A DNA stretch of 64,000 bases, taken from Eledone cirrhosa. Its lineage: Eukaryota. Below, piece after piece: positions 46,501 through 55,500 of the stretch (within the stretch, counting starts at the first letter, position 1; every line of letters starts with the position of its first letter). Location of the stretch: NCBI GenBank assembly GCA_964016885.1, contig OZ024748.1, positions 1,178,001 to 1,242,000 on the forward strand, read 5' to 3'. Position numbers and translations under genes: made by a program. Below the pieces are notes generated by a model. It saw only the letters and a list, made by a program, of their open reading frames with translations. It was not told the DNA's origin and made no database searches.

Positions 46501-49500
46501 AGAGATTTAGTAAAATATCTTTGGGACAGTGTAGGAATAAGAACACTACATACATAGGTGAAACAGCCCGTAGCATAGGAGAGAAGATAAACGAACACTG
46601 GCGAGAACTCCAGGGTGGGAAAAACTCATCAGTACTCCACCAACATGCCAAAACGGAACATAGGGGCATATTAGAGAACATAGAGATAAAAATTATATCC
46701 ACACACAGAAATGACGCAATATTTAGACAAATTACAGAGGCGACAAACATAAACATACTCCAACCAAAATTAAACAGAAAACATCAGTGGAATAGCAACA
46801 TCATAACAACTAGTAATTAAGGACAATATGAAGACATACAGACACACACAAAATCTAAACTAATAAAACAAACCAGGCACACACAGATAGAACAAGCAAC
46901 CAACTAGTGACAAGTAAATAAACACATAAATAAATAAATAACGCAAGCCAAACACACAGCACACAACACACAACAACAATATGGTGCAGCATGACCCTCC
47001 CAAAGTATAACAATGTATATATATATATATATATATATATATATATATATATATATATATAGTAATAATGATAAATGTGAAGACTAAAATACAAAGAGGG
47101 CTCGATAAGGATAAATATATATCGAATATATAAGAACAATAGAGTAAATATTTATTAAAATAACAGATTAAAGTTTAAGCAAAGAATCGCTGCTTTGCCG
47201 CTTAACTGGATCTTCAGAAGATCCCGTTAAGGGTGAAAGCAGCGATTCTTTGCTTAAACTTTAATCTGTTATTTAAATAATATATATATGTGTGTGTGTG
47301 TGTGTGTGTGTGTGTGTGTGTGTGTGTGTGTGTGTGTGTGTGTGTGTGTGTGTGTGTGTGTGTGTGTGTGTGTGTGTGTGTGTGTGTGTGTGTGTGTGAG
47401 AAAAACCACAGACCCTCCATCTCAACTCACCTTTTGAAAAGCAGAAGAACTGCGAAACCGGTAAAGGAACCAAATAAATATATATATTTTTTTTAAAAAT
47501 AAGACTCCATTGCATTTTCGATTTCATCTCTTTTTCTTTATGCTTTCACTCGTGTAGGACACCTCGGTTATTTTTCAATTTGTAAAAAAAACCTCACTTT
47601 CTAATATATATATATATATATATATATATATATATATATATTTATATATATATATATATATATATATATATTTCTATATATATATATATATATATATATA
47701 TATATATATATATATATATTTCTATGTATATATATATTAACCTTTCTTTTACCTTTATCAGTTATGGTACAGCTGGTGGAATGTTCAGTCCCTTACCGAG
47801 TTGTCCTCCCCGTGGAGTTTTCAGTGTCGATCTAACTGGAACACCGTTCATAATAAGCAAGAAAGTGAGATGGCAATGGAAAGGACAATTTCAAGATGGT
47901 GGAAACAATGGGTCTGTGAAGTTATATAACAATCGTAAGTACAATACTTAACATCAATAATATACCAGCTTTCGCTTTGAAAGTAGCTGTTAAAGTGGTA
48001 TCGGTGGGGAGGTTTTAATTAAGCTAGTATCATTATGATACCAACCCCAATGAAAACAGAGTGAACATTAATACGTTAAATAGTGAGAAGAACGATTTCG
48101 TGGGGATAGAGAATTAAATTCCCTCTTCCTGGAGTAATTAATTAGTTTCCACTACTTCATCTGCTGGCGACAGGCCATATATGGAGCTGGCGTTCACAGA
48201 AAATTAGGTAATGCTATTAAGTACTATCTGTCTGTCTGTCTATCTATCTATATATATATATATATATATATATATATATATATATATATATATATATATA
48301 TATATATATATATATGAAATTAATAAAAACAATGAAATAAAAACAAAGAATAGGTTCCTTATATTGAAAAATTCATCATTTTACGATCGTTTCTGGGATA
48401 TATATGTGTGTTGGTATGTATATCATGTTAAAGATCTATGTAAAAAGATATTACAAATTATCAGAGGAGATATACATACCTTCACCTATACATGCCATCT
48501 TCAGAAATGATGAAGTATGTTTATTGAAAGAAACAAAGTATACCTACCAATTAATTTAATTTCCTTTTATGTATCTAGGTTTCTTGAAATTTAAATAGAA
48601 TTAGTATTTCTCACTAACACTCTCATCCCACAAATTTCTTTCCCTTCCTTTTAACAGCATTTTTTAATAACATCAAATTTTTGGGGACTCCTTCACTATC
48701 TCCTTGATTTGACCTCATTTTAACCCCTATCTTTCTCTTCCCTATTGTATTCTTTTCATTCAAAGCATAAATTTACATACCTCCACTCCTAGCATCAAAT
48801 TCTACTACTGTTATTCTATCAACTTGACCTCTAACTCTTTTCTATCGGTCAAATCAAAACCTGTTCCCAAACAGACTTTTTATATTAATACTTTGTTTCT
48901 TTCAATAAACATACTTCATCATTTCTGAAGATGTCATGTATAGGTGAAGGTATGTTTATCTCCTCTGATAATTTGTAATATCTTTTTACATAGATCTTTA
49001 ACATGATATACATACCAACACACATATATCCCAGAAACGATCGCAAAATGATGAATTTTTCAATATAAGGAACCTGTTCTTTGTTTTTATTTCATTATTT
49101 TTATTAATTTATTTTGACTCTGTTTTCCTATGATTTTTATCGTTAATTTTTGAATGTATTTTCTCTTTTCATGATATCTTCTATATTTGGATTACATTGA
49201 GTTTTTCATATGAATTGGACACTACCGTTTATTTTGATAGATTTATCTACACACACACACACACACACACACACACATATATATATATATATATATATAT
49301 ATATATATATATATATATATATATTTGTTTTGCAAGGTTTTTGATATGAAATCGTGTGTCGAAACAAATATTGTTATACTTGGGGAGGGGCATATTGTTG
49401 TAATAATATTGCCAGAAATAATAACAGAACTTTGATAGAATATATATATATTTGTCAATCAATGATAAACCTTGATTACCAAATAAATTTACTATGGAGA

Positions 49501-52500: not shown

Positions 52501-55500
52501 TCATGGTTGTCCTTTTCTATGGTCGACTTTCAGTTTGGAAATGAGTGTCGCTGTGGCAACAGCTACAACAAGTATGGGTCATCCAGAGGCTGTACTCTCA
52601 GCTGTACTGGTCAAAAATATCGAAGGTGTGGTGGAAAGTCTGCCATCTCTGTATTCACTGCAGGTATGTAATAGGAAAGGTTTGAAAATTATTTCTTGTC
52701 CACTTTACGAAAGAAGTCTGCGACAATAACTTCGCAGTTATTAGTTTCAGAGATCCTAGTCGGGGGTAATTTCTTCTCTTCTTCTTTCTTCTTCATTGCC
52801 CATTTATTCCTGAGAGGGTTAGAGGGGGGGAGGGCATAGTCCTGAAACACTCCTTCCAGTGGGTCGTGTTAGAAGCATCTGTCTCTAACTGATCCGGCTG
52901 GATCCGCAAGTATGGATGTTATTCAACCATCTTGCTCGAGGTCTACCTCTGGCTCTCCTACCTGGAGCTATAAATCTATCCAGCTATTCTTTCATGAGAC
53001 ATTCTAACCACATGTCCATAGTATCGGAGCAGGGATCTCTCAATTCGGAGAAGACATACATACATACACACATACATACATACATACACACATACATACA
53101 TACATACATACATACATACATACATACATACATACATAGGAAATTACAAGTACAATCCATTAATGGAACAGTAAAAATATGTAAAACATTCCAAACATTT
53201 TGCATCTAATAACTGCATATACACATGTACAGATACAAAGCATATACACATGCACACATACAACTCAAAAACATACACATCCACTCATACAATAACATCC
53301 ATATCTACTCATACAATAACATCCATATCTACACATGCATGCAGACATGCAGACATATCTACCTAGTTGATGTTGTGTAAATTCCAATGAGAGAGTCTTG
53401 TGCCTATGTTAGAAACCGACTCTCTCTCTATTGGTAAAACTTTGTGAAATTATAAAACCAGAAGAACATACATATATACGAACATACATACATACATACA
53501 TACATACACACATACATGCACACATACATACGCAGATATGTACCCCCATACATACATACATGATGATGGCTGCCCCCTCGTTATCGAGTATGGCCATTGC
53601 ACGATATACCATTATTAATAATAATTAATTAACTCTATCGTGCAATGCCTGTACTTGAAGATATTTTTTAAAGTGACGAGTTATCCCAGTTTCCTGAGTT
53701 GCCTTCTCCTAGAAGAATGCCCTGACAAAGGCTAGGGGTCCTTCACTCTCAGTGGTTTAACCACGCGATCGGGTGTCCAGCCCGACTATTTCTATGCCCC
53801 CGCGCATATACATACACATGCACCCATGCATATACACATATACACACACATGTACATGTGTATATACATATTTACACACTTTTGGATGCCCGTTGACCCT
53901 TATGAGTTCTTCCGCCCTTTGTCAGGTTATGTTTTTTGTCCTGCAGGGTGTCCAAAATCACCCTCCTCACCAAGTAAACTTGGTATGTATACATACATAC
54001 ATGGTTGCTGCCAACTCGTTTTCGAGTACGGCCACTACTTTATATCCATGTAGGAGAACCCCTACCGATGCGCTGAATGAGTGTGACTTTTTAGTCCAGC
54101 CAGCGACTTGAAAACTCTGGTACAAACACTACACTTGTGGCAATTATTGACACAGTGCTGGGCCCATGGTACCATGTGACGACAAGTGCAGAGAGATCTC
54201 CAGATATAAAGCAATGCCTGTGCCGTGAAGCTTTTATAGTGAGCAAAGGCACTGCACAAAGCCAGTCCCACTCTCTTAACCAAGTTGATATTTACCAAAA
54301 AGAAGAACAAGTCAACATCATTGGATACCATCAGAGTTGCAGGTGTTATATCAGAGTTTTCCTTCTCCTAGAATTCTGCCTTGACAAAGGCTAAGGGGTC
54401 ATCTCTCCCGGTGATTTTGGATAGCCATTGACTCTTAAGAGCTCCTTTGCCCTTTGACAGGTTTTGTTTTTAGTCCTGCAGGATGTCCAAAGTCACCCTC
54501 CTCACCAAGAAACCTTGGTGGGGTTGCCAGTTTAGTCGCCAACGACCCGACCATGAGACAGGTTGTACTGGGATACATGTTACCAGTAGCACCAACTGGT
54601 GACCTGACATACACATACATATATGCATACATACATACATGTGTATATTCAAATTGTATTTTTTAGCGACATCACATTATCGAGTGGGCTGGTGTGATGG
54701 TTACCCAGGTCAATGTTACCCTGCTCTCACTGACGGCCAGGAGAAGGACCTTTTGTTTCTACAATTAAATCCGAACAACCCTTGCAACCAGTAAGTATGT
54801 ACCAATTGCTGCAGTCGCTGTTGGTGGTGTTGTTCTTGGTGTTGTTGGTGGTGTTGTTGGTGTTGGTGGTGTTGTTGGTGGTGTTGTTGGTGGTGGTGTT
54901 GTTGGTGTTGTTGTTGGTGTTGTTGCTGGTGTTGTTGTTGGTGGTGTTGTTGCTGGTGTTGTTGCTGGTGTTGTTGTTGGTGGTGTTGTTGGTGGTGCTG
55001 TTGTTGGTGTTGTTGCTGGTGTTGTTGTTGGTGGTGCTGTTGTTGGTGGTGTTGTTGTTGTTGATGTTGTTGGTGGAGTTGTTGGTGTTGTTGTTGGTGG
55101 CGTTTTTGGTGGTGTTGTTGGTGGTGTTATTGTTGGTGTTGTTGTAGGTGGTGTTGTTGGTGTTGTTGTAGGTGGTGTTGTTGGTGTTGTTGTTGGTGTT
55201 GTTGTTGGTCGTGTTGTTGGTGTTGTTGGTGGTGTTATTGGTGGTGTTGTTGTAGGTGGTGTTGTTGGTGTTGTTGTAGGTGGTGTTGTTGGTGTTGTTA
55301 TTGGTGTTGTTGTTGGTCGTGTTGTTGGTGGTGGTGTTGTTGTTGTTGGTGGTGGTGTTGTTGGTGTTGTTGTTGGTGGTGTTGTTGGTGTTGGTGGTGT
55401 TGTTGGTGTTGTTGTTGGTGGTGTTGTTGGTGGTGTTGTTGGTGTTGGTGGTGTTGTTGGTGGTGTTGTTGGTGTTGTTGTTGGTGGTGTTGTTGGTAGT

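Follow-up and report, generated by a model that had tools for sequence, protein, structure and literature searches.

A WSC domain probably inserted by exon shuffling inside the GON domain of a mollusc membrane protein, seen in Eledone cirrhosa

The GON domain of ADAMTS9 and GON-1 has been reported to have an endoplasmic reticulum (ER)-to-Golgi role without protease activity; there it lies at the far C-terminus and is impaired by C-terminal fusion (PMC3338439). WSC domains have been linked to the binding of glucan in a fungal lectin and of protein in Kremen (PMC9024836). Domain insertion, in which the host is divided in the order A1-B-A2, is put at 20% of multidomain proteins in PMC13114784, and for symmetric-phase exon shuffling PMC2926785 reports equal-phase introns on both sides in 28 of 49 middle gains. 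We have analyzed a stretch of 64,000 nucleotides from the repeat-rich genome of Eledone cirrhosa (contig OZ024748.1, here G000:C8:1178001-1242000; hereafter the window), which contains a gene where the two domains meet. A cassette of two WSC exons lies between the fourth and fifth GON exons of this gene. We consider it quite probable that it arrived by exon shuffling and is always spliced in, and that the two GON pieces fold together with the WSC domain projecting from a hairpin turn.

The nine exons of the gene in the window (Table 1) join into an open frame with AG/GT ends throughout and phases 1,1,2,1,0,1,2,1,0. The exon coordinates proposed in an earlier note on this DNA all hold. The gene starts with the ATG at 39504, next to which lies a hydrophobic leader, and exons 39504-47934 encode the signal peptide and about four-fifths of the GON domain. 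Pfam was scanned exon by exon over the nine exons, with model lengths of 199 for GON (PF08685) and 82 for WSC (PF01822). Three exons each score above the GON cut-off of 22.6 bits, and the orthologues score 88-123 bits. GON exon 4 is without the cysteine that ordinary GON domains have after the AGD motif. Among named proteins the nearest is a fragment of 221 amino acids from Octopus bimaculoides (XP_014770689.1), with 74% identity over exon 4; its name, 'ADAMTS9-like', is a label on that fragment.

The case for an insertion depends on the identity of the exon that follows the WSC pair (54667-54790). A GON profile was built from 58 uninterrupted GON segments, including the protein P0031 described below. 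When the WSC exons were skipped in silico, the Eledone protein gave one GON alignment over profile positions 12-204, with 151.8 bits as against 141.7 for the part before the WSC (the N-part) alone. The unskipped protein matches in two pieces around the WSC, in Eledone and in the orthologues. The distance from an F-x-x-D-L-x-x-T anchor to the tail motif is 132-137 residues in the family, compared with 36-43 in the 58 uninterrupted segments. A tail-only profile matched the orthologue tails with 17-25 bits in nine of nine family proteins; a tenth row, the choanoflagellate protein P0109, gave no match. The Eledone exon itself aligns to the tail of the orthologue P0162 at 41% (E 1.4e-7). Since the orthologue tails match and skipping yields a single alignment, the exon reads clearly as the GON tail once relatives are compared, which bears out the earlier claim that it completes the GON C-terminus. 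No missed exon that could complete the domain instead, the case set against that claim for 47935-51890, was found in the introns, where the best tail-profile scores were 1.6 bits (47935-51800) and 0.1 bits (52664-54600). The two GON pieces also share a loss. Of the 58 uninterrupted segments, 55 have a certain cysteine in the N-part together with another in the tail, the other three being unscored or without them. All 11 family rows that have a tail lack both, leaving the usual GON cysteine set incomplete.

Structure prediction places the insertion at a turn. In an AlphaFold2 model of the uninterrupted GON protein P0030 (mean predicted local distance difference test, pLDDT, 86.1), the site corresponds to the turn between strands 185-189 and 195-200. 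In the oyster orthologue P0173 the WSC lies between strand 198-204, which leads into it, and strand 299-305, which leads out; the tail blocks have pLDDT 69-85. The insert superimposes on the WSC domain of Kremen1 (Z 14.0, root-mean-square deviation (rmsd) 2.2, 93 aligned), and residues 371-497 of the same model superimpose on the PCSK9 C-terminal domain (Z 12.4, rmsd 2.2, 111 aligned). We also predicted the two GON pieces of P0162 as unlinked chains, with residues 29-201 for the N-part and 291-328 for the tail. The complex score was 0.63, against 0.02 for the best of three controls. Among solved pairs 51 of 78 attain the mark for this score, and among mismatched pairs 2 of 108 do so (39 of 65 and 2 of 126 for eukaryotes). 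As both chains come from a single domain, passing the mark indicates resemblance to a GON fold that the model may know from sequences. Across the runs at least 55% of contacts were common, and partner pLDDT was at least 55. The tail strands pair with core strands 165-167, 174-177 and 180-183, and both lost-cysteine sites fall in the predicted interface. The insertion is thus predicted to lie in the turn of the last GON hairpin, with the two GON pieces rejoining around the WSC, in keeping with the earlier proposal of a loop of the GON fold. No solved structure scored above Z 2.8 against the GON model, which does not show the fold to be new; the first part of GON has weak sequence matches to collagen C-propeptide and intelectin (best E 0.008).

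The two ends of the WSC/PAN fold stand side by side. The WSC domain could be tolerated within GON for this reason, as it would lengthen the hairpin and leave the sheet unbroken. The WSC exons together comprise 261 nt, or 87 codons, with eight cysteines, a CGG motif and intron phases 1-0-1, and they cover the Pfam model in full (1-82 of 82). Skipping both keeps the frame and creates a Pro codon at the junction; the symmetric phase 1-1 cassette and its in-frame skip, both noted earlier, were recovered on recomputation. The same layout (a phase 1 acceptor lying two bases ahead of Y-[IL]-G-C, a phase 0 donor that follows A-G-L-[EQ], and a phase 1 final donor) is found at G000:C6:15.18-15.21 Mb (L050, L053, L054). 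Among 15 WSC matches in the Eledone genome, those outside the 1-0-1 layout are single-exon or split elsewhere. The presence of the 1-0-1 cassette in other WSC genes means that it exists as a unit elsewhere, as exon shuffling requires. Together with the equal-phase introns, this supports the proposal that exon shuffling would have brought the WSC, as a single symmetric cassette, to a place within GON. The C6 locus is one of two clusters of repeated WSC exons in the genome, the second being at C6:65.09-65.12 Mb.

Other GON genes of Eledone bear on where such a cassette may have landed. In the ADAMTS-type gene on C19 the same hairpin turn holds an intron, of phase 0 and two bases from the phase 1 site of the family (counted from the tail cysteine). 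It is plausible that an old intron at this turn was the landing site; the phases do not match, and a shift of one codon in total would be needed. A further GON gene, at C2:321.637-321.641 Mb on the - strand, has an uninterrupted tail, different intron positions and no intron at that turn. In the ADAMTS-type gene (L060-L064), which occupies C19:25.578-25.587 Mb (+ strand) and C19:24.732-24.733 Mb (- strand), the last two GON exons lie about 850 kb from the earlier ones and on the opposite strand, reflecting either an assembly inversion or a second gene.

The arrangement is widespread in molluscs. The O. bimaculoides fragment, searched against 1.84 billion representatives, gave 307 matches, of which we took the best 150, and a search with an oyster orthologue gave eight; the largest family cluster has 15 of its 23 members among the matches listed. 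Among these matches the order GON-WSC-GON was found in Lottia, Crassostrea/Magallana, Saccostrea, Ostrea, Mytilus, Mya and Sinanodonta, so that the comparison with mollusc orthologues proposed earlier gives the same order in gastropods and bivalves. The insertion therefore appears to be old and common to molluscs, the cephalopod included. Records from Dreissena, Batillaria and Ciona have the GON N-part followed by WSC and end without the tail. The Ciona intestinalis record (XP_078483486.1, 230 amino acids) holds the N-part and half a WSC at the same insertion point, and has a long branch in the tree; no longer tunicate relative of P0007 scored among 1290 candidates, which is weak evidence. Logan proteins of 1591 and 2216 amino acids include the WSC. 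Their contigs measure only 5.3-8.4 kb and are therefore intron-free, and are probably transcript assemblies. Fifty-two family records were compared for splicing of the WSC. Nine have no anchor motif; the remaining 43 comprise 37 with a whole WSC, three with a partial WSC, which appear to be gene models missing one WSC exon, and three that end before the tail. The ends of several shortened records, that from Ciona included, would fit models that read past a phase 1 donor where the WSC is inserted and past a phase 0 donor within it. A clean WSC skip was seen in none of the 43 protein records with the GON anchor motif, a redundant set of about ten genera drawn from annotation that misses minor isoforms. 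On this count the WSC is likely to be constitutive and always spliced in.

Using a further 180 kb of downstream genome, we extended the gene to 30 exons that join without a stop. They encode 1314 amino acids, 46% identical to P0162 over 1309 columns, in the order GON[WSC], EGF, PCSK9-like cysteine-rich region, EGF, first half of FN2, LamG, glycine-rich region, second WSC, second half of FN2 and EGF. A transmembrane exon is found at about G000:C8:1,296,920-1,297,067, some 8 kb past the last joined exon, and the gene runs to about 1,297,100 of that contig. NPxY is present in the tails of five of seven mollusc-type orthologues. The predicted host is a large type I membrane protein, conserved across molluscs.

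A second domain of this protein, the FN2, is likely to be split as well in the Eledone gene and its orthologues, its halves standing about 650 residues apart with LamG, a glycine-rich region and the second WSC between them. With an FN2 profile made from four choanoflagellate copies, the first half was found in ten of ten orthologues and the second in nine (five above 10 bits), 608-663 residues later. Pfam fn2 matched at 1-29 on one first half and at 21-42 on one of three second halves tested, the latter below cut-off. Between zero and four of about 195 random windows reached the joined FN2 score, a flawed control in that the windows could overlap the first half. The split FN2 spans G000:C8:1,255,380-1,287,163, outside the window. 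Its 3' end does not fall at an intron in Eledone, and the split could alternatively have come from two FN2 copies that each lost one half. A Foldseek search with a 1189-residue model gave LamG-type matches only; a circular permutation of LamG was considered and dropped, as solved LamG domains could be aligned to model residues 595-781 without any change of order.

Several observations weigh against the reading of a WSC cassette shuffled into GON and always spliced in. Taken alone, exon 54667-54790 has no Pfam GON match, and on the GON-tail profile it reaches 6.7 bits (E 0.87, second of 3654 frame pieces), a diverged and not significant score. Both structure tests were made on orthologues rather than on the Eledone protein, and the whole-protein model of P0173 is mediocre (mean pLDDT 63.6, predicted template modelling score 0.40, 20 sequences). 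The paired cysteine loss is one inherited event, common to the uninterrupted P0031; it ties the tail to the N-part and says nothing on the insertion. A phase 1 intron predating the insertion finds no counterpart in the C19 paralogue, where the intron is of phase 0, or in the C2 gene, whose turn has none. The redundancy of the 43 records belongs here too, as does the failure to find in Eledone the exons linking the last joined EGF exon to the transmembrane exon and an NPxY exon.

Could the cassette instead be an alternative-splicing switch, with both WSC-bearing and plain GON heads being made? We regard this as unlikely, although it is the alternative that fares best. The earlier note had suggested two isoforms on the strength of the in-frame skip, which does give a single GON alignment. 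A possible product is P0031, a protein of 235 amino acids with a leader, a GON domain without the cysteines, the tail motif of the family directly after the first hairpin strand, and the start of an EGF. Its best match in the Eledone genome is the GON gene of the window. In a GON N-part tree of 53 rows made by a quick method, in which a profile filter dropped 6 of the 12 family rows, the six retained rows group with P0031 (Shimodaira-Hasegawa-like approximate likelihood-ratio test 93, not starred). This uninterrupted member of the same subfamily could be a skipped form, or a gene model missing both exons. The spacing in P0031 is 40, however, whereas skipping in Eledone would give 45. None of the 43 family records shows the skip, and in five bivalve genera the RefSeq isoforms vary at places other than the WSC, leaving the two isoforms without support so far. 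P0031 may equally represent the state before the insertion or a later loss. A metagenome scan with it for its gene gave only distant intron-free GON-like genes.

A slightly less probable history involves no insertion: in a tandem GON-WSC-GON array, the first GON would have lost its tail and the second its front. Suitable materials exist, since the amphioxus proteins P0025 and P0045 have a whole GON followed by WSC, and tandem GON domains occur in P0002 and P0008. This route is less simple, as two deletions must meet exactly at one turn. Against it too, the N-part and the tail both carry the matched cysteine loss of the subfamily, and they align to P0031 without gap or overlap save for one added codon. 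A cassette received by a single GON remains the preferred reading. Among other GON proteins encountered, L056:1120-2025, L057:178-1113, P0138 and P0144 are intron-free, bacterial-looking and secreted (Pfam E 3e-15 for L056 and 5e-22 for P0144); P0138 and P0144 have about 20 extra residues at the same GON hairpin. The ESM Atlas matches were all below 0.9 and serve as leads only.

It is also improbable that the GON head acts chiefly as an ER export factor, with the rest of the protein secondary. The role reported for ADAMTS9 and GON-1 would favor this, and it fits poorly with a GON that is N-terminal, interrupted and followed by more than 1200 residues and a transmembrane segment. The idea of a truncated or dead GON, with the post-WSC exon a relic or an EGF linker, draws on two unusual substitutions in the Eledone tail motif, its weak score and several annotated records that end before the tail, and it is largely refuted and very improbable, given that the motif is kept in nine of nine orthologues tested, that prediction places the tail within the GON core, and that the tail-less records, to judge from their ends, read into introns or are ab initio models.

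Elsewhere in the window, a multi-exon gene with several Ig domains, presumably contactin-like from its resemblance, lies on the - strand at about 4300-13330, head to head with the GON gene. Remains of LINE-type retroelements occupy 20759-22800 and 57882-58930, with an endonuclease domain at 20759-21358 and a reverse transcriptase at 57882-58601. At 60204-62526, within an intron of the GON gene, 591-bp tandem units form a perfect 1071-nt inverted repeat with 16 nt between its arms, which is either a satellite palindrome or an assembly artefact.

Table 1. Exons of the GON gene in the window (window positions)
Feature	Position	Strand	Match
Coding exon 1: ATG, signal-peptide-like hydrophobic stretch and GON start, phase 1 donor	39504..39711	+	57% to O. 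bimaculoides XP_014770689.1 residues 1-68
GON exon 2, phase 1-1	44756..44839	+	Pfam GON 36-60
GON exon 3, phase 1-2	46254..46407	+	Pfam GON 78-118
GON exon 4 and first strand of last hairpin, phase 2-1	47762..47934	+	Pfam GON 122-161
WSC exon A, phase 1-0	51891..52021	+	Pfam WSC 1-45
WSC exon B, phase 0-1	52534..52663	+	Pfam WSC 47-82
GON tail exon: second hairpin strand, G-x-C-x-G-Y-P-G-x-C motif, last hydrophobic strand, first EGF cysteine; phase 1-2	54667..54790	+	
EGF-like exon, phase 2-1	57216..57319	+	Pfam
First exon of cysteine-rich region; oyster counterpart matches PCSK9 C-terminal domain fold	59839..59948	+	

What might such a protein do? The combination of WSC, LamG and FN2 domains, an EGF stalk, one transmembrane segment and NPxY suggests an endocytic receptor as the likeliest role. 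The GON-WSC head may form its far tip, capturing glycan or protein ligands through WSC, LamG and FN2 on the EGF stalk, with uptake through the NPxY-type tail motif; we offer this as a tentative proposal, a little less likely than not. Somewhat more speculative is the idea that these genes form an undescribed receptor family dating from before the bilaterian split and built by nesting, with a WSC in GON and a 650-residue LamG/glycine-rich/WSC block in one FN2, of which the choanoflagellate and P0031-like genes keep uninterrupted states and the GON intron marks the landing site. If this is true, one can trace step by step how exon shuffling reaches the inside of a domain. The route can be tested, since a paralogue reveals the intron site of the host and there are still relatives without the interruption. 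The insertion also marks a point at which the GON fold, to which no solved structure came close, accepts an insert. It draws attention, too, to a conserved membrane protein of molluscs whose database names, ADAMTS9-like, Kremen or MEGF, derive from fragments. We did not find the GON-WSC nesting, the protein family or six orthologue identifiers in the literature searched, which left subscription journals and bioRxiv supplements outside; one paper there mentions both the GON domain and molluscs.

Each part of the protein can be set beside a known system. The choanoflagellate protein P0109 (Hartaetosiga gracilis transcriptome, 3036 amino acids) is collinear with the mollusc family at the GON, at an EGF-EGF-FN2 block and at an FN2-EGF stalk, and likewise has an N-terminal GON, LamG and a transmembrane segment. 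Unlike the mollusc proteins, it has unbroken GON and FN2 domains and other middle domains, and it is a candidate orthologue. MEGF10/Draper receptors are defined by an EMI domain, EGF repeats and NPxY. The mollusc protein resembles MEGF10, MEGF11 and Draper in its laminin-type EGF stalk, its single transmembrane segment and the NPxY of most orthologues, and some records are named MEGF6/MEGF11-like. It differs in a head of about 1250 residues with GON, WSC, FN2 and LamG, and few stalk repeats were found in the Eledone copy; Pfam scans of the orthologues gave no EMI match.

The GON (PF08685) resembles that of ADAMTS9, ADAMTS20 and GON-1 in its full-length profile match with the WSC set aside, and an intron lies at the same turn in Eledone's ADAMTS-type gene. 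Here, in contrast, the domain is N-terminal, has lost one cysteine pair and is interrupted by WSC. Neither metalloprotease nor thrombospondin domains appeared in Pfam scans of the orthologues, and the ADAMTS-type gene on C19 is separate. The WSC (PF01822) shares with Kremen1, yeast Wsc1 and the fungal glucan-binding lectin WSC3 a full-length match, the eight cysteines, CGG and the Kremen1 fold. Unlike those, it is nested in another domain, and it is a candidate ligand binder.

Domain insertion and symmetric-phase gains are both known; what may be new is the pairing of GON with WSC in a conserved mollusc family. The words GON, WSC and fn2 were not found as whole words in the text and three supplementary files of PMC13114784, which may use other family labels. 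Like the A1-B-A2 insertions described there, a smaller domain sits in a larger host, whose pieces are here predicted to form one fold; unlike them, the insert has an intron exactly at each of its ends. In the usual account, exon shuffling places modules between domains. The gains described in PMC2926785 likewise have equal-phase flanking introns and lie in mid-protein, whereas in the mollusc gene the module bounded by introns of equal phase lies inside a domain.

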